Position numbers and translations under genes: made by a program. Positions 1,728-11,960 of a stretch of 12,128 nucleotides of DNA are shown one piece after another. Within the stretch, counting starts at the first letter, position 1. Every line of letters begins with the position of its first letter. Source of the DNA: a virus. Its lineage: Duplodnaviria > Heunggongvirae > Uroviricota > Caudoviricetes. The stretch is taken from the IMG/VR virus record IMGVR_UViG_2778261502_000010, positions 1-12,128 of that record. The stretch is one strand, 5' to 3'. The notes beneath the pieces were generated by a model, which was given only the letters and a program-made list of their open reading frames with translations, had not been told where the DNA came from and did not search any database.

Positions 1728-3084
<1,357 letters not shown>

Positions 3085-3529: not shown

Positions 3530-4429
3530 ATGACAAATACAGCAAAAATACTCAACTTCGGCAGAGGTAACTTTGCCGGACAGGAGCGTAATGTGGCAGA
3601 TCTCGATGATGGTTACGCCAGACTATCAAATATGCTGCTTGAGGCTTATTCAGGCGCAGATCTGACCAAGCGACAGTTTAAAGTGCTGCTTGCCATTCTG
3701 CGTAAAACCTATGGGTGGAATAAACCAATGGACAGAATCACCGATTCTCAACTTAGCGAGATTACAAAGTTACCTGTCAAACGGTGCAATGAAGCCAAGT
3801 TAGAACTCGTCAGAATGAATATTATCAAGCAGCAAGGCGGCATGTTTGGACCAAACAAAAACATCTCAGAATGGTGCATCCCTCAAAACGAGGGAAAATC
3901 CCCTAAAACGAGGGATAAAACATCCCTCAAATTGGGGGATTGCTATCCCTCAAAACAGGGGGACACAAAAGACACTATTACAAAAGAAAAAAGAAAAGAT
4001 TATTCGTCAGAGAATTCTGGCGAATCCTCTGACCAGCCAGAAAACGACCTTTCTGTGGTGAAACCGGATGCTGCAATTCAGAGCGGCAGCAAGTGGGGGA
4101 CAGCAGAAGACCTGACCGCCGCAGAGTGGATGTTTGACATGGTGAAGACCATCGCGCCATCAGCCAGAAAACCGAATTTTGCTGGGTGGGCTAACGATAT
4201 CCGCCTGATGCGTGAACGTGACGGACGTAACCACCGCGATATGTGTGTGCTTTTCCGCTGGGCCTGCCAGGACAACTTCTGGTCCGGTAACGTGCTGAGT
4301 CCGGCCAAACTCCGCGACAAGTGGACCCAGCTCGAAATCAACCGTAACAAGCAACAGGCTGGCGTGACAGCCGGAAAACCAAAACTCGACCTGACAAACA
4401 CTGACTGGATTTACGGGGTGGATCTATGA
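3530..4429 (+). CDS. O: Replication initiator O (299 aa), lambda type
   Basis: [66 protein letters not shown]... is near-identical to lambda O from memory; the ori iterons lie inside it. Confidence 0.93.
3878..3964. repeat. ori-lambda: four ~19-bp iterons (ATCCCTCAAAACGAGGGA-like) followed by an A/T-rich unwinding region to about 4010
   Basis: Four tandem imperfect repeats: tcatccctcaaaacgaggga / atcccctaaaacgagggata / catccctcaaattgggggat / tatccctcaaaacaggggga, then acaaaagacactattacaaaagaaaaaagaaaag. Confidence 0.85.
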
Positions 4430-4593
4430 AAAACATCGCCGCACAGATGGTTAACTTTGACCGTGAGCAGATGCGTCGGATCGCCAACAACATGCCGGAA
4501 CAGTACGACGAAAAGCCACAGGTATTTGATACCAGACCTCTCCGCGCCGCCATGATTGTCTTTCTCCTGATGCAGGAGGCCAATAATGCTTAG
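4426..4593 (+). pseudogene. P: Truncated replication protein P: first ~33 codons lambda P-like, then unrelated sequence and a stop
   Basis: The ATG overlaps the O stop (ATGA at 4426-4429). [33 protein letters not shown] matches the lambda P N-terminus from memory, then [22 protein letters not shown] and TAG at 4591-4593. Lambda P is ~233 aa and there is no room for it before rusA. Confidence 0.75.
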
Positions 4594-4803
4594 CCCATCT
4601 CAATCCCTTCAATACCTGAAAGGAAGCATAGAGCGGGCTTCAATGTGCACAGAGTGGATTCTATCTAGGTTTAGCGCATACAGAAGATTGCCGGTAAAGG
4701 GCATGCCAAGCAAGTCGATGCTGCATATGCAAAAGAATGCGCGCTGGAAGGTATGGCGAGAACGCAGGTTATCTGGCTGAAAGAGGGGGTAATTAAGGCG
4801 TGA
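4586..4803 (+). pseudogene. nin-region remnant: NinF-like N-terminus running through frameshifts into a YbcO (DUF1364)-like C-terminus
   Basis: The ATG at 4586 opens [14 protein letters not shown]... (lambda NinF starts [10 protein letters not shown] from memory). In another frame 4675-4803 reads [42 protein letters not shown], resembling the YbcO C-terminus. No continuous frame exists; the reference sequences are recalled from memory. Confidence 0.45.
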
Positions 4804-5162
4804 ATACTTACCACATCACACTACCCTGGCCGCCGAGCAATAACCGCTACTACCGCCATAATCGAGGGCGCACGCACGTCAGCGCAGAGGGGCAGGCATA
4901 CCGCGATAACGTCGCCCGAATCATTAAAAACGCAATGCTGGATATCGGCCTGGCTATGCCTGTGAAAATCCGCATTGAGTGCCACATGCCGGATCGCCGT
5001 CGCCGTGACCTGGATAATCTGCAAAAAGCCGCTTTTGACGCACTCACTAAAGCAGGTTTCTGGCTGGATGATGCTCAGGTCGTTGATTACCGCGTTGTGA
5101 AGATGCCTGTTACCAAAGGTGGGAGGCTGGAACTGACCATCACCGAAATGGGGAATGAATGA
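4800..5162 (+). CDS. rusA: RusA Holliday-junction resolvase (GTG start)
   Basis: [120 protein letters not shown] matches E. coli RusA from memory. Confidence 0.93.
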
Positions 5163-5299
5163 TGTTTGAGTTTAATATGGCAGAACTTCTTCGCCACCGC
5201 TGGGGGCGTCTGCGCTTATATCGTTCCCCCGGTTCTGTTTTGACCGATTACCGAATACTGAAGAATTACGCCAAAACCCTGACAGGAGCAGGAGTATGA
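5159..5299 (+). CDS. ylcG: YlcG-like small protein (46 aa), start overlapping the rusA stop
   Basis: [46 protein letters not shown] translated directly; resembles DLP12 YlcG from memory. Below the length cutoff of the ORF track. Confidence 0.65.
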
Positions 5300-5384
5300 A
5301 GTCAGAGATAACAATCAACTAATACTGTTTTGTTGATTTTTGCTTGTAATTGGCGTTCTGGCCTGATTTTTGTGGAGTAAGTTG

Positions 5385-5768
5385 ATGCGTGATATTCAGA
5401 TGGTTCTTGAGCGTTGGGGAGCGTGGGCGGCTAATAATCATGAAGATGTGACCTGGTCGTCCATTGCCGCCGGTTTTAAGGGATTAATTACTTCAAAAGT
5501 AAAATCTCGCCCGCAATGTTGTGACGATGACGCGATGATTATTTGCGGGTGCATGGCCCGTCTGAAAAAGAACAACAGCGATTTGCACGATTTATTAGTA
5601 GATTATTATGTAGTCGGTATGACATTCATGTCACTGGCAGGTAAGCATTGCTGCTCTGATGGTTATATCGGGAAAAGGTTACAGAAGGCTGAGGGCATAA
5701 TTGAAGGGATGTTAATGGCATTAGATATCCGGTTAGAGATGGATATCGTTGTTAATAACTCTAATTAA
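5385..5768 (+). CDS. Q: Q-family late-gene antiterminator (QuuD-like, 127 aa)
   Basis: [62 protein letters not shown]... with Cys-rich zinc-binding-like motifs, in the Q position downstream of rusA/ylcG. The ATG at 5385 is preferred over the TTG at 5370. Confidence 0.85.
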
Positions 5769-5957: not shown

Positions 5958-7055
5958 TTAGAACTGGTAAACCAGACCTACAGCAACGATGTCATCAGTG
6001 CTTACACCGAGTGCTTTAGTGAAGTCATTTTTGTCAAGCAGGTTGATTTTGTAATCAACGAAAGTAGACATATTTTTGTTGAAGTAATAGGTTGCACCTA
6101 CATCAACATATTTGACTAAGTCCTGATCGCCCCATACTCCAAGATCCTTACCTTTAGATTGCAGGTAAGCAACGGACGGACGCAGACCGAAATCGAACTG
6201 ATATTGTGCAACAGCTTCGAAGTTTTGAGCTTTATTAGCAACGAAGTGATCAGCAAATACAGTCATATTCTGGGTTTCAGAATAGGTAGTGGCCAGGTAA
6301 ATGTTGTTAGCGTCATATTTCAGACCTGCGGCCCAAACTTCTGCATTTTTACCGGAAGCAAATACTTCAGGAAGAACTTTCCCTGCATTAACTTGAGTGT
6401 CGGTACGATCAGATTTCGCATAAGTTGCACCGATACCGAATCCTTCGTATTCATAGGTAGCAGAGAAACCGAAGCCATCACCGTTACCTTCGGTGTAGTT
6501 ATCGAAATCGCTACGATCGTTTTTGCCTTGGTACTGAGCAGCAAAGTTCAGACCATCAACCAGACCAAAGAAGTCGTTGTTACGATAGGTTGCAACACCA
6601 GTGGTGCGACCAGTCATGAACACATCTGTTTGGGTCCAGGTATCGCCACCGAATTCTGGCAGAACGTCAGTCCACGCACCGATGTCGTATGCTACACCGT
6701 AGTTACGGCCGTAATCGATGGAGCCGTAGTCACCGAATTTCAGGCCAGCGAAGGCAAGACGGGTTTTATCTTTGGAGGAACCTTGAGATTCAGCGCGGTT
6801 GCCTTTGAATTCATATTCCCACTGACCGAAACCAGTCAGTTGATCGTTGATTTGGGTTTCACCTTTGAAGCCAAGACGGGCATAAGTAGTATCACCATCA
6901 TCTGCATCATTAGAGGAGAAGTAGTGCTTAGCATTAACTTTCCCGTACAGATCCAGCTTGTTACTGTCTTTATTATAAATTTCAGCTGCCTGAGCAGACA
7001 TCGCCATCAGTACTGATGCAGCTACAGCAGAAATTGCCACTGTTAATTTTTTCAT
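5958..7055 (-). CDS. nmpC: General diffusion porin, NmpC/Lc (OmpC/OmpF/PhoE family), intact 365 aa with signal peptide
   Basis: [40 protein letters not shown]... and a C-terminal ...VAVGLVYQF beta-barrel signature with a terminal Phe. It sits convergent to Q and upstream of the holin, as for lc in phage PA-2 and nmpC in DLP12. Confidence 0.93.
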
Positions 7056-7844: not shown

Positions 7845-8341
7845 TGCCTCCATCATTACGAAAAGCCGTTGCTGCTGCTATTGGTGGCGGAGCAATTGCT
7901 ATAGCATCAGTGTTAATTACTGGCCCAAGTGGTAACGATGGTCTGGAAGGTGTCAGCTACATACCATACAAAGATATTGTTGGTGTATGGACTGTATGTC
8001 ACGGGCATACAGGAAAAGACATCATGCTCGGTAAAACGTATACCAAAGCAGAATGCAAAGCCCTCCTGAATAAAGACCTTGCCACGGTCGCCAGACAAAT
8101 TAACCCGTACATCAAAGTCGATATACCGGAAACAACGCGCGGCGCTCTTTACTCGTTCGTCTACAACGTGGGTGCTGGCAATTTCAGAACATCGACGCTT
8201 CTTCGCAAAATAAACCAGGGTGATATCAAAGGCGCATGTGATCAGCTACGGCGCTGGACATACGCTGGCGGTAATCAATGGAAAGGACTGATGACTCGCC
8301 GTGAGATTGAGCGTGAAGTCTGTTTGTGGGGGAAACAATGA
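7844..8341 (+). CDS. R: SAR endolysin (phage-21 R / RrrD-type lysozyme, 165 aa)
   Basis: The start overlaps the holin stop (TAATG). The N-terminus [27 protein letters not shown] is a Gly/Ala-rich signal-anchor-release segment, followed by a lysozyme domain matching R21/RrrD from memory. Confidence 0.93.
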
Positions 8342-8796
8342 GCAGAGTAACCGCGATTATCTCCGCTCTGGTTATCTGCATCATCGTCTGCCTGTCATGG
8401 GCTGTTAATCATTACCGTGATAACGCAATCGCCTACAAAGAGCAGCGCGATAACAAGGCCAGTGAACTGGAGAAGGCGAACGCCACCATCGCTGACATGC
8501 GGAAGCGTCAACGTGATGTAGCAGAACTCGACGCAAGATACACAAAGGAGCTTGCTGATGCTAACGCGACTATCGAAAGTCTCCGTGCTGATGTTTCTGC
8601 TGGGCGTAAGCGCCTGCAAGTCGCCGCCACCTGTGCAAAGTCAACGACCGGAGCCAGCGGCATGGGCGATGGAGAAAGCCCAGGACTTACAGCAGATGCT
8701 GAACTCAATTATTACCGTCTCCGAAGTGGAATCGACAAGATAACCGCGCAGGTTAACTACCTGCAGGAATACATCAGGACGCAATGCCTGAAATAA
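8338..8796 (+). CDS. Rz: Rz i-spanin (inner-membrane spanin subunit)
   Basis: The ATG overlaps the endolysin stop (ATGA at 8338-8341). It has an N-terminal transmembrane segment [23 protein letters not shown], a coiled-coil-like charged region, and Rz1 embedded in the +1 frame. Confidence 0.85.
8552..8743 (+). CDS. Rz1: Rz1 o-spanin lipoprotein embedded in the +1 frame of Rz
   Basis: ...[26 protein letters not shown]...: a lipobox-like LGVSAC followed by a proline-rich segment, entirely within Rz. The exact start (Met1 or Met3) is uncertain. Confidence 0.7.
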
Positions 8797-8827
8797 TTTT
8801 TTTGCAAATCACAAAGTCCATTTAATG

Positions 8828-8852
8828 AGCCTCGCGATGCGGGGCTTTTTTT
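8828..8852 (+). terminator. Rho-independent terminator after the lysis cassette
   Basis: AGCCTCGC-GAT-GCGGGGCT (8-bp stem with one G-U pair) followed by a run of 7 T. Confidence 0.7.
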
Positions 8853-9001
8853 ACATCTGAATTTCACAGCGCATCTCACGCGCATATTACATCACCCGAG
8901 CCTTTCAGAAAGTTGAGCCTGAGAACTGCCGTATATGGTGGCGACCATCTCGGGGCGGCTTTTCTGTGAGACAGGCTCACTTTCTAAAAGGTAAAGACGC
9001 T

Positions 9002-9490
9002 ATGAACCAATTAGAAGAAAAGCTTCAAAGAATGATTTCCTTATACAAGGAAGATAACTGCCAAAAAGTTCCTGAAAACATCGCAGAGTTAATGGAATTG
9101 GCAAGTGAATTTTCTGGCATGCTTAAGTCGTCAGGTGTTCGGTCAGCGTTCTTTGTTGAAATGCTGATGCACGGCGGACTTATGGCAACAATGAGACGTG
9201 TAATGGAAGACCAGAGAAAAGAACCTCCTCAGGTATACGTTTTGTCATCGAAGAAAACTGGGCTAACCAAAATTGGGTATTCATCCAACATTCCACAACG
9301 CATCAAATCGCTTGGCAACTCTGGACCAGACTGCTTGAAGCTTGAGTGCCTGATCCCTGGTGGAAGAGAAACTGAAAACATGCTTCATCGCAAATTTGCC
9401 GCAAAGAGAAAGCACGGTGAATGGTTCGCCCTGTCCAAGGATGACATTGAGGGATTGAAATCTGTAGCGATTACTTCTGATGGCTATTAA
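9002..9490 (+). CDS. Hypothetical protein with a C-terminal T5orf172 / GIY-YIG-like domain (162 aa from the ATG at 9002; alternative GTG at 8966)
   Basis: The C-terminal half PQVYVLSSKKTGLTKIGYSSNIPQRIKSLGNS...LKLECLIPGGRETENMLHRKFAAKRKHGEWFALSKDDIEGLKSV fits the T5orf172 pattern (VYVL...KIG...R...L......E..LH..F...R..GEWF). The N-terminal ~80 aa are unassigned. AAGG lies about 10 nt upstream of the ATG at 9002. Confidence 0.6.
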   Translation: MNQLEEKLQRMISLYKEDNCQKVPENIAELMELASEFSGMLKSSGVRSAFFVEMLMHGGLMATMRRVMEDQRKEPPQVYVLSSKKTGLTKIGYSSNIPQRIKSLGNSGPDCLKLECLIPGGRETENMLHRKFAAKRKHGEWFALSKDDIEGLKSVAITSDGY

Positions 9491-10168
9491 TGCTTGTTTA
9501 GAGCAATTTTCATAACAACTCTTCATTACAAAGCCCATCTACTGGTGGGCTTGATAATGAAACCGTGATTTACATCCCCACAATCCGGGTATGTAAAAGA
9601 TAGTTCAGGCGAGAACGGATTTAACTAAATCTGTGCGCCACCAGTTAACGGCAGTACCACGAAACAACCCAAGCCAGTAAGTGGGGAAATAACACCGGCA
9701 GCCACTGAAAGATGAACCTCCTGCCTTATGGCAAAAAAGATTCTTTGTGGTGGCGGACTGATGGAAAGACATCCTAATTTCAGCCAAACATTGAAGGAGT
9801 TGTTATGTCAGCAGAAGGTTTCAATAACCCATCAAAATTCCGGGATGAGTGGGATAGCAGCGTAAAGAGTAAGTGATGCCATCACAAAAGCCATTCCCTA
9901 CAGAGTGGCTTTGATAATGGCTTATACCCTACACGGGATAACTTAACTGATATCCCTTTTAAAGGATAAAGGTATTCAAGCCTGACACATCATGCGCTGT
10001 ATCGTCGCCGTATTCCCGTATTAACAGAGACCGTAGCCCGACGGGGAACTCCTTCTGCGCGAGTGTGCGGGAATAATCAAAAACGATGCACACCGGGGTT
10101 ACCGGGTACACATATTTCATCATGCCAGCGAGTCCGGTTCTGGCACGGAAGAAACCGGACGTTATGAT

Positions 10169-10579
10169 TTAGTGCGGAAATATTTGTGTAGTGTTCTGAA
10201 TGTTCTCAGTAAAGAGTAATGAATTATCAAAGGTATAGTAATACCTTTTGTTTTCGTGGATATTTGTAATCCATCTGAAAACCCCTGCTGTAGCAAGATT
10301 TTTCCTGTATTCGTAAAATGATAACTCTCCTGATTTGAATCCTTTTAATGTGGCTTCTATAAGGCATTTATTTTTTGAAAATCTTACATTTACAACCTTA
10401 CCCTGTCCTTTTATTAAAACCGTATTATCGTTTTCAAGAACAAGATGAATATTCTCTGTGGCTAAATAGTAAATGTAATGTGAGACATTGTGACGTTTTA
10501 GTTCAGAATAAAACCAGTGATAGTTTAAATTATTTCGCACTTTATCGAATATTTGTTTAAAAATGGCAACCTGAGCCAT
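10169..10579 (-). CDS. ybcV: YbcV-like protein (DUF1398 family), 136 aa from the MAQVAIF start
   Basis: [58 protein letters not shown]...[38 protein letters not shown] resembles DLP12 YbcV from memory. GAAGG lies upstream of the second ATG; the first ATG is at 10594. Confidence 0.7.
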
Positions 10580-10636
10580 TGTAGTACCTTCCATGTGATA
10601 TGAGGGTACCTAGTCTGCACGATTATCTAAATTGCT

Positions 10637-10870
10637 TCAATCTGGTCTGACCTGCTTTCTGAGCAATTCAGTAATGTCACTCTTTTCTTTGTTTGCTTCA
10701 GGCGAAACTCTTTTTTCTGAGCACAGTCTTCGGCGGCAGGCTTCAATGACCCAGGCTGAGAAGTTCCCAGACCCTTTTTGATCAAGAGCGATGTTAATTT
10801 GTTCAATCATTTGGTTAGGAAAGCGGATGTTGCGGGTTGTTGTTCTGCGGGTTCTGTTCTTCGTTGACAT
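10637..10870 (-). CDS. ylcI: YlcI-like small basic protein (DUF3950-like, possible ribbon-helix-helix DNA binder), 77 aa
   Basis: MSTKNRTRRTTTRNIRFPNQMIEQINIALDQKGSGNFSAWVIEACRRRL...: basic N-terminus followed by a beta-helix-helix-like pattern; it lies directly upstream of and co-oriented with the ybcV-like gene. Confidence 0.6.
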   Translation of the reverse strand: MSTKNRTRRTTTRNIRFPNQMIEQINIALDQKGSGNFSAWVIEACRRRLCSEKRVSPEANKEKSDITELLRKQVRPD

Positions 10871-11069
10871 GAGGTTGTCCCGTATTCAGTGTCGCTGATT
10901 TGTATTGTCTGAAGTTGTTTTTACGTTAAGTTGATGCAGATCAATTAATATGATACCTGCGTCATAATTGATTATTTGACGTGGTTTGATGGCGTAGATG
11001 CACGTTGTGACATGCAGATGATAATTATTATCATTTTGCGGGTCCTTTCCGGCGATCCGACAGGTTACG

Positions 11070-11257
11070 GGGCGGCGACCTCGCGGGTTTTTGCTATTTA
11101 TGAAAATTTTCCGGTTTAAGGTGTTTCCGTTCTTCTTCGTCGTAACTTAATGTTTTTATTTAAAATACCCCTGAAAAGAAAGGAAACGACAGGTGCTGAA
11201 AACGAGCTTTTGGGCCTTTGTCGTTTCCTTTCTCTGTTTTTGGCCGTGGAATGAACA
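11070..11257. other. cos: cos site: cosN 12-nt cohesive-end sequence GGGCGGCGACCT (11070-11081) and the cosB terminase-binding region up to Nu1
   Basis: ...GGTCCTTTCCGGCGATCCGACAGGTTACG|GGGCGGCGACCTCGCGGGTTTTTGCTATTTATGAAAATTTTCCGGTTTAAGG... matches the junction of the lambda right and left ends from memory. Confidence 0.88.
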
Positions 11258-11803
11258 ATGGAAGTCAACAAAAAGCAGCTGGCTGACATTTTCGGTGCGA
11301 GTATCCGTACCATTCAGAACTGGCAGGAACAGGGAATGCCCGTTCTGCGAGGCGGTGGCAAGGGTAATGAGGTGCTTTATGACTCTGCCGCCGTCATAAA
11401 ATGGTATGCCGAAAGGGATGCTGAAATTGAGAACGAAAAGCTGCGCCGGGAGGTTGAAGAACTGCGGCAGGCCAGCGAGGCAGATCTCAAGCCAGGGACT
11501 ATTGAGTACGAACGCCATCGACTTACGCGTGCGCAGGCCGACGCACAGGAACTGAAGAATGCCAGAGACTCCGCTGAAGTGGTGGAAACCGCATTCTGTA
11601 CTTTCGTGTTGTCGCGGATCGCAGGTGAAATTGCCAGTATTCTCGACGGGATCCCCCTGTCGGTGCAGCGGCGTTTTCCGGAACTGGAAAACCGACATGT
11701 TGATTTCCTGAAACGGGATATCATCAAAGCCATGAACAAAGCAGCCGCGCTGGATGAACTGATACCGGGGTTGCTGAGTGAATATATCGAACAGTCAGGT
11801 TAA
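11258..11803 (+). CDS. nu1: Terminase small subunit Nu1 (181 aa), lambda type
   Basis: [71 protein letters not shown]... is near-identical to lambda Nu1 from memory. Confidence 0.93.
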
Positions 11804-11960
11804 CAGGCTGCGGCATTTTGTCCGCGCCGGGCTTCGCTCACTGTTCAGGCCGGAGCCACAGACCGCCGTTGAATGGGCGGATGCCAATTACTATCTCCCG
11901 AAAGAATCCGCATACCAGGAAGGGCGCTGGGAAACACTGCCCTTTCACCATCACCGTTAA
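11778..11960 (+). pseudogene. A: Terminase large subunit A, N-terminal ~55 codons only, truncated by a deletion
   Basis: [56 protein letters not shown] matches the lambda gpA N-terminus from memory, then HHHR and TAA at 11958-11960. The ~640-aa remainder is absent. Confidence 0.85.

Follow-up and report, generated by a model that had tools for sequence, protein, structure and literature searches.

In the window examined here, namely the whole 12,128-nucleotide stretch of IMG/VR record IMGVR_UViG_2778261502_000010 with a DLP12-like lambdoid prophage of Escherichia coli, a gene for a T5orf172 protein stands after the lysis genes, and we show that it is one of several alternative cargos of a compact cassette: an intrinsic terminator, a leader of ~90 nt, a cargo gene starting at a fixed ATG, and a 3' hairpin. 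The cargo is usually Rha and alternatively KilA-N, ANT, P22_AR_N, or T5orf172, all of which are members of the domain-swapping Bro network. As a gene it is ordinary, being already annotated and widespread, and the more novel results are the leader shared by these cargos and the N-terminal module of the protein, which appears to be portable. In terms of function, we favor, with a probability of about 0.55, a late-expressed and translationally gated nuclease carried as interchangeable cargo of the rha-slot cassette in the lysis–packaging interval of temperate enterobacterial phages.

The cassette and its structured leader

When positions 8853–9010 were folded as a single sequence, a long irregular hairpin was obtained (−50.5 kcal/mol, z −3.2), in which 8900–8905 is paired with 8987–8992, the region of the AAAGG Shine–Dalgarno sequence. 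Conservation of this structure was evident from a MAFFT alignment of 35 distinct leaders, where RNAalifold gave 27 pairs with 98.7% of the cells paired; compensatory double changes occurred in 15 of the 27 pairs, as against 0–2 when the partners were slid by 1–3 columns, and none of 500 column shuffles reached any of the observed measures. Also, a diverse set of 29 leaders exhibited compensatory changes in 22/27 pairs (4–7 in the slid controls), a figure to be read with the caveat that this second alignment was fitted to a covariance model. The basal helix bearing the Shine–Dalgarno sequence had compensatory changes at five of its seven pairs in the MAFFT set and at all seven in the model-aligned set.

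The covariance model, R1, was built from the 35-leader MAFFT alignment and scored 132.9 bits at 8889–9007 on the plus strand of the window versus 25 bits on the minus strand. Given this strand contrast and the many U–G pairs in the leader alignment, we consider the leader to be a sense-strand RNA and not a DNA element. No match was found in Rfam 15 either for 8300–11300 at E up to 1 or for the whole window at E up to 0.1, and the leader is therefore not C4, isrK, or any other curated family. Because Rha has a phenotype in hosts deficient in integration host factor (IHF), we also scanned for the IHF consensus; 22 matches were obtained versus 16 expected, none of them meaningful in the leader.

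In every T5orf172 homologue of the slot that was tested (loci L138/L139 of Salmonella, L134 of Klebsiella, and L135/L136 in our numbering), the R1 leader precedes the gene and ends exactly at ATG+6. It precedes the rha genes of phi80 and P22 as well, and R1 found no leader in loci where the slot is empty. Among 5426 complete E. coli genomes, 919 (17%) were found to have the leader, including those of Stx2a phages, and a 100%-identical copy stands before either a Rha gene or a GIY-YIG gene in different E. coli genomes. Copies were located at 2517–2634 in L009, 1161–1279 in L140, 1168–1285 and 2534–2652 in L010, and 1409–1522 in L139. A copy was also found in front of a P22_AR_N/ORF11CD3 gene in Stx2a phages, of ANT genes, of a 242-aa open reading frame (ORF) of phi80, and, in Klebsiella phages, of KilA-N/P63C genes situated among the tail genes; a weaker copy (39 bits) is found before an HNH_3-AP2 gene in a Salmonella prophage (L139, 1409–2029) between the Q antiterminator and the holin gene. 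Furthermore, the annotated starts of phi80 rha (L009, 2593) and P22 rha (L140, 1205) fall inside the leader, and the conserved ATG lies 36 and 69 nt further downstream, respectively. The database proteins of both rha genes are hence probably too long at the N-terminus.

The two ends of the cassette are likewise conserved. According to an earlier note made from the same sequence, the gene directly follows the terminator of Rz, and our terminator scan confirmed this with a stem at 8827–8847 followed by a T-run. The terminator is kept upstream of every cassette variant that was aligned and is annotated as rho-independent in the records of HK106 and epsilon34. At the right edge, a conserved GC-rich stem of 9 bp at about 9531–9553 lacks a U-tract and was not called by the terminator scan; this 3' hairpin is common to the T5orf172, Rha, and KilA-N cassettes and, in L006, lies inside the 3' end of a small ORF; it may be an RNA stabiliser or a recombination boundary. 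In pairwise blastn with the Rha-bearing locus L007, epsilon34, and others, KilA-N-bearing phages among them, homology runs over 8828–9006, ends 5 nt after the ATG, and resumes at the 9523–9559 hairpin and again at 9639–9773.

These flanks place the slot in a wider context. The 152-bp upstream segment is present in 155 phage records, among them 73 Stx2a phages and phi80, where it stands before rha, and the hosts of these phages are E. coli, Salmonella, Klebsiella, Enterobacter, Citrobacter, Hafnia, Pantoea, and Providencia. The segment at 9639–9773 is 93–98% identical in 157 phage records (P22, HK620, epsilon34, HK106, and others) and is located immediately 3' of rha in P22 and in many P22-, HK620-, and HK97-like phages. 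Since the former segment precedes rha in phi80 and the latter flanks rha in P22, the slot is, as judged from its flanking sequences, the rha locus of phi80 and P22. The 9639–9773 segment also holds a minus-strand terminator-like hairpin (9738–9717), and a 60-aa ORF overlapping it had no Pfam hit.

In a census of 129 cassettes, which is biased by having been seeded with a 22-mer from the leader plus the fetched loci, the cargo was of the Rha type in 86, T5orf172 in 20, KilA-N in 16, and ANT in 3, and a Rha–T5orf172 fusion protein (P0030) also exists. The variable character proposed for the slot was borne out by a synteny survey, where the interval between Rz and the DUF1398 gene across E. coli was empty or was occupied by bor, iss, a gene of the Rha family, a KilA-N gene, or other small genes; bor is indeed found there in DLP12 of strain K-12, as the earlier note had stated.

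The gene and its two-domain protein

The coding sequence starts at ATG 9002 and encodes 162 residues, and this start is used by both PGAP and the HK106 annotation. The earlier note was correct in placing an ORF on the plus strand here, but its start at GTG 8966 was wrong; we rejected this start because the 36 nt up to the ATG are conserved, non-coding, and paired leader RNA, and because in other leader variants the GTG stands out of frame or runs into a stop. A 224-aa version (P0001) was rejected on the same ground, as its upstream frame lies inside the paired RNA and is not conserved across the leader variants. Gene callers gave versions of 162, 174, and 224 aa, which arise because this particular leader variant happens to have no in-frame stops.

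An 821-bp region with the gene is essentially complete in 80 of the 5426 complete E. coli genomes (~1.5%), many at 100% identity, and the protein is 99.4–100% identical in the phage isolates HK106 (gp64, YP_007151734.1) and Chlobot. The idea that the gene would be notable in a domesticated prophage is hence not sustained, and we also rejected, for this copy, the view that a decaying gene has left a remnant in a cryptic prophage: it is intact and identical to the copy in phage isolates, and its family has a ratio of nonsynonymous to synonymous substitution rates (dN/dS) of ~0.1. Between HK106 gp64, WP_016245257.1, and PHROG 4284 (phrog_4284, function unknown; E 4.6e-91) on the one hand and the window gene on the other, there is no difference of substance, with the same slot after the Rz terminator and the same leader. 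Phages of E. coli, Salmonella, and Klebsiella have relatives with 33–83% identity, in every case downstream of the lysis genes and upstream of the terminase genes. Among them, epsilon34 gp68 and g341c gp64 of Salmonella phages (33% for the window protein) have the same two-domain architecture, slot, and leader and align over the whole length, differing only by their 30–33% identity; the family is therefore old in this slot. Full-length members form a small family of 16 clusters, from Escherichia, Salmonella, and Klebsiella, in a collection of 5.8 billion proteins; the superfamily of the C-terminal domain is huge, with 38,349 representative proteins at E up to 0.001.

Two observations on other copies may be added. 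Truncated or frameshifted copies (L077 and L024; P0010, P0012, and P0015) have kept the N-terminal domain and lost the nuclease domain. In a Klebsiella variicola prophage (L134), moreover, a 76%-identical homologue is followed by an overlapping gene (4489–5187) for a 232-aa non-specific DNA/RNA endonuclease (Pfam Endonuclease_NS, E 2.9e-38), a neighbor that fits a nucleic-acid-degrading theme and proves nothing.

As had been proposed, the C-terminal half belongs to the T5orf172 family: matches to Pfam MUG113 (PF13455; E 7.4e-15, 55.7 bits versus a cut-off of 22.3) and T5orf172 (PF10544; E 3.3e-10, 40.8 bits versus 20) are far above the curated cut-offs. The canonical GIY-YIG model (PF01541), in contrast, stayed below threshold (12.5 bits versus 22.6, E 0.18) and covered the first motif only, and no NCBIfam family, including its defence families, matched the protein. 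The signature spelled out in the earlier note is present as VYVL-x8-KIG-x7-R, with two spacers one residue longer than given there, and the second Tyr of the canonical motif (that of YIG) is Lys90 here. None of the positions invariant in T5orf172 has been lost: Y79, K90, I91, G92, R100, E125, H129, and G139-E-W-F142 show no variation, either among 26 homologues of 27–49% identity or in the close family.

An AlphaFold2 model based on an alignment of 10 sequences (mean predicted local distance difference test score, pLDDT, of 87) has three long helices at 3–20, 23–43, and 49–71, each with pLDDT >90, followed by a strand–strand–helix–strand–helix–strand–helix domain that corresponds to the GIY-YIG alpha/beta fold. 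The N-terminal region is thus helical and unassigned to any Pfam family, in agreement with the earlier note. Structure searches with the whole model were dominated by helix bundles and uninformative, and a PDB search with the full-length profile returned nothing relevant. When a profile of 26 diverse T5orf172 domains was used instead, the only two hits in the PDB were sub-threshold and were both GIY-YIG proteins, and in these weak alignments V-Y79 is matched with GIY, K90-I-G92 with YIG, and R100 with the catalytic Arg. From the order of secondary structures, E125 in the helix after strand 3 would be the counterpart of the metal-binding Glu of I-TevI. The T5orf172 protein Odn of phage ICP1 has been experimentally shown to be an endonuclease and is inactivated by E180A, which changes the Glu aligned with E75 of I-TevI (PMC8263062).

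Purifying selection acts on both halves of the protein (dN/dS ~0.1). The ratio was 0.15 against the Salmonella homologue and 0.08–0.13 against or between the Klebsiella and Salmonella homologues, with similar values in the N- and C-terminal parts. In all lineages checked, the N-terminal part is acidic (isoelectric point 5.3) and the C-terminal part basic (9.4). No sequence-specific DNA-binding domain, be it a Zn-finger (CapR/DUF723), NUMOD, AP2, or other, was found in the protein. A stand-alone homologue of the N-terminal module, ~85 aa long and with a tail rich in Lys, Arg, and Glu, was found directly after KilA-N genes in cassettes of the same type; a hidden Markov model (HMM) scan of all fetched loci located it in L006 (2672–2983), L054, L075, and L130 (2391–2651), the last being the distant Klebsiella phage ST11-VIM1phi8.1. 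In hhalign, the module and the second ORF of L006 were matched with a probability of 95.9% (E 5e-9). A profile search with the module alone against the 5.8 billion proteins retrieved nothing but pieces of this gene, without any new fusion partner. These results suggest that the N-terminal module is a portable partner module.

Expression and function

Between the Rz terminator and the ATG (8850–9001), no sigma-70-like promoter was found in a consensus scan, which can miss weak or non-sigma-70 promoters, and the gene runs in the same direction as the Q-dependent late operon. Since Q-modified RNA polymerase reads through intrinsic terminators, transcription of the cassette would be expected late in the lytic cycle, and in the lysogen it would be shielded from read-through. 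With no promoter found, the late-operon orientation, the upstream intrinsic terminator, and the Shine–Dalgarno sequence buried in a hairpin, therefore, the layout is that of a tightly silenced late gene and not of a lysogen-expressed moron like bor, which lies on the strand opposite to the late operon and has its own promoter. The same features, together with a downstream hairpin devoid of a U-tract, speak against the earlier note's description of the gene as a terminator-bounded, independently expressed unit. Gating of translation by the leader would imply, furthermore, that the product is harmful to the cell.

On this basis, the reading that we favor may be put as follows. The gene would be silent in the lysogen and transcribed only by Q-antiterminated late transcription passing through the Rz terminator, and the leader would be an additional gate on its translation. 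Judging from I-TevI and ICP1 Odn as analogues, the C-terminal domain would nick or cleave DNA with Mg2+ by means of Y79, R100, and E125, and the N-terminal module, which is also found as a separate protein beside KilA-N genes, may thereby be seen as the part for partner binding, targeting, or autoinhibition. As the most likely substrate late in the lytic cycle, we see DNA undergoing replication, be it that of the host, of satellites, or of rival prophages induced at the same time. Several points weigh on the other side. Late-only expression is deduced from the order of the genes, from what is generally known of lambdoid phages, and from the lack of a consensus promoter; the promoter scan could have passed over a weak promoter or one of another sigma class; and the prophage in the window is defective, so that Q-dependent late transcription is uncertain here. 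As for the protein, no DNA-binding or targeting domain was identified in it, and the substrate is thus a guess; Lys stands in place of the YIG tyrosine, a change common to the entire T5orf172 family; and E140 is Gly in P0002, one of the cluster representatives (98% identical).

Given the sharp breakpoints of homology at the ATG (+5) and the 3' hairpin, which look like allelic replacement at a fixed site with conserved flanks, and given the identical leader before either the Rha or the T5orf172 allele, one may think of a free-standing homing endonuclease, which would act on another lambdoid genome, co-infecting or co-induced, by cutting its slot where this has the rha-type (gene-less) allele; during repair, the T5orf172 gene would then be copied in, with the leader and the 3' flank serving as homology arms. 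T5orf172 genes are indeed an abundant class of phage homing endonucleases, frequently adjacent to terminase genes and where genetic exchange has its boundaries (PMC10448857), and the HNH_3-AP2 gene behind the same leader has a typical homing-endonuclease architecture; that some copies are truncated is also as in a homing cycle. Nonetheless, 87% of T5orf172 homing-endonuclease genes carry a DNA-binding domain (PMC10448857), none of which was found in the window protein with its acidic N-terminal domain. Lineages only 30–50% identical, moreover, all reside in one slot under strong purifying selection in both domains, a pattern that speaks more for lasting function than for selfish cycling; cargos that are not nucleases share the cassette and are swapped in like manner, and exchange therefore does not require a nuclease; and the T5orf172 gene is a minority allele (80 genomes versus 919 with the leader). 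We hence regard homing as unlikely.

The sharing of slot and leader with Rha, KilA-N, ANT, and P22_AR_N proteins could alternatively mean that the T5orf172 domain is a non-catalytic, DNA-binding module of a Bro-network regulator doing the same job as Rha, KilA-N, or Ant, which could be antirepression or an influence on how the phage, or prophages resident in the same cell, are replicated or transcribed. In keeping with this, the first prediction for T5orf172, made from its association with Bro-N and KilA-N, was that of a DNA-binding domain; CapR, a related protein of endonuclease origin, functions as a repressor (PMC8096241); and the N-terminal module pairs with KilA-N in trans. Invariance of the equivalents of the GIY-YIG catalytic Tyr, Arg, and Glu down to 27% identity would, however, be unexpected if catalysis had been lost, and a characterised T5orf172 protein is a real nuclease (PMC8263062); we consider a purely regulatory role improbable. 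The reading least compatible with the anatomy of the cassette is a prophage-encoded defence nuclease expressed in the lysogen and protecting it against superinfecting phages, to which we would give little credence: its late-operon orientation is unlike that of bor, no promoter was found, the terminator is directly upstream, and the Shine–Dalgarno sequence is sequestered. In its favor, the slot does hold lysogenic-conversion genes (bor and iss) in other prophages, the gene has been kept intact in a defective prophage, and there is a weak PADLOC match to the candidate system PDC-S57 (E 8e-6, 23.6 bits). This match, the only one in the defence library, covers only the shared domain (positions 3–83 of the 212-position profile in PADLOC-DB v2), no NCBIfam defence family was matched, and the fold resembles PD-T4-3 no better than any other GIY-YIG protein.

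Beyond the late nuclease that we favor, a joint and more tentative proposal can be made. The leader may represent an undescribed class of cis-regulatory RNA that gates toxic DNA-acting cargo (Rha, KilA-N, Ant, HNH, and T5orf172) in the late operons of temperate phages of Enterobacterales and is opened by a phage or host signal; the T5orf172 protein would at the same time be a late nuclease weapon against co-induced rival prophages or satellites, and the three-helix module a portable adaptor that serves KilA-N in trans. We regard this combination as possible and still rather doubtful as a whole.

Prophage setting and relation to known systems

The features of the window are collected in Table 1. 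The prophage element appears defective, since N, recombination genes, and P are lacking in the window: neither N nor recombination genes were found between the integrase and the cI-type repressor gene (838–2128), and the position of P holds only a NinX-like fragment (4426–4800). A tRNA search found no tRNA. Directly downstream of the cI-type repressor gene, at the position of rexAB in lambda, a 158-aa ORF (1728–2204, minus strand) encodes a protein with a hydrophobic, signal-like N-terminus and without a match in Pfam, NCBIfam, or PADLOC; it is a candidate for a lysogen-expressed accessory gene.

Table 1. Coordinates of features in the window.
Feature	Position	Strand	Remarks
Whole window	12.1 kb		DLP12-like lambdoid prophage of E. 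coli
Integrase	1–837	−	
HTH_17 excisionase-like ORF			between integrase and cI-type repressor in the listed gene order
cI-type repressor	2129–2761	−	
cro, cII, replication protein O, rusA			in this order after the cI-type repressor
Antiterminator QuuD	5370–5768		
nmpC/OmpC-type porin gene	5958–7055	−	between Q antiterminator and holin gene; DLP12-like placement
essD, rrrD, Rz/Rz1	8326–8796 (Rz/Rz1)		lysis genes
Intrinsic terminator after Rz/Rz1	8827–8852	+	9-bp stem, 6 GC pairs, T-run; terminator scan
Conserved structured RNA leader	8901–8991	+	whole conserved leader about 8853–9001
Leader helix 1	8901–8908 with 8984–8991		holds Shine–Dalgarno AAAGG
Leader helix 2	8915–8921 with 8972–8978		
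Leader helix 3	8922–8932 with 8955–8965		
Leader apical hairpin	8936–8939 with 8944–8947		
Coding sequence	9002–9490	+	162 aa plus stop; identical to WP_016245257.1 "GIY-YIG nuclease family protein"
N-terminal domain	9002–9217	+	residues 1–72; acidic three-helix bundle, no Pfam family
C-terminal T5orf172/MUG113 domain (GIY-YIG superfamily)	9218–9487	+	Pfam matches
C-terminal key residues	9236–9238 (Y79), 9299–9301 (R100), 9374–9376 (E125)		also K90-I-G92, H129, G139-E-W-F142
Conserved 3' hairpin	9523–9559	+	cassette right edge; 36 bp; blastn breakpoints and fold
Backbone segment	9639–9773	+	135 bp, non-coding, just 3' of rha; right-hand flank of slot
Genes downstream of the T5orf172 gene		− (DUF1398 and YlcI/YnfO genes)	DUF1398 gene and YlcI/YnfO gene, then nohD
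Terminase-large reading frame	11778–11960		stop after 60 codons

Among known systems, rha of phi80 and P22 shares the slot, the upstream terminator, the structured leader, and the position of the ATG with the window gene. The Rha protein itself is unrelated, having a winged-helix Rha domain (Pfam Phage_pRha) plus ORF11CD3 instead of a nuclease fold, and it has a genetic phenotype, namely inhibition in IHF-deficient hosts (noted on rha in the phi80 GenBank record as "DNA synthesis inhibition in IHF- hosts"), whereas none is known for the T5orf172 gene. ICP1 Odn (Gp88) and the ICP1 T5orf172 homing-endonuclease genes likewise have a T5orf172 domain with the conserved Arg and Glu (PMC8263062, PMC10448857). 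The ICP1 proteins are, however, equipped with a RepA_N or Zn-finger (CapR, DUF723) DNA-binding domain, in place of which the window protein has its acidic three-helix module with no detectable DNA-binding signature; also, the ICP1 genes belong to lytic phages, and the window gene to a temperate late-operon cassette with a leader. From canonical GIY-YIG proteins (I-TevI, UvrC, Slx1, Eco29kI, and PD-T4-3), the window protein is distinguished by its sub-threshold score, the change of the YIG Tyr to Lys, and an extra invariant H-G-E-W-F motif. The com/mom genes of phage Mu offer a likeness in regulation, as there, too, a late operon ends in a gene whose DNA-acting product is potentially toxic and whose translation start is occluded by an mRNA hairpin; they have no sequence or structural relation to the window cassette, however, and no Com-like activator was identified here.

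In conclusion, we have identified a cassette in which a conserved structured leader precedes alternative Bro-network cargos, among them the two-domain T5orf172 protein of the window. The leader corrects start calls, since the annotated rha genes of phi80 and P22 and the 174- and 224-aa versions of the T5orf172 protein all start inside it. Because the gene is an allele of the classical and poorly understood rha locus, a function found for one cargo bears on the others. The leader gives a concrete point of entry to the question of how lambdoid phages silence Bro-network proteins and also of why Rha of phi80 and P22 becomes harmful in IHF-deficient hosts.

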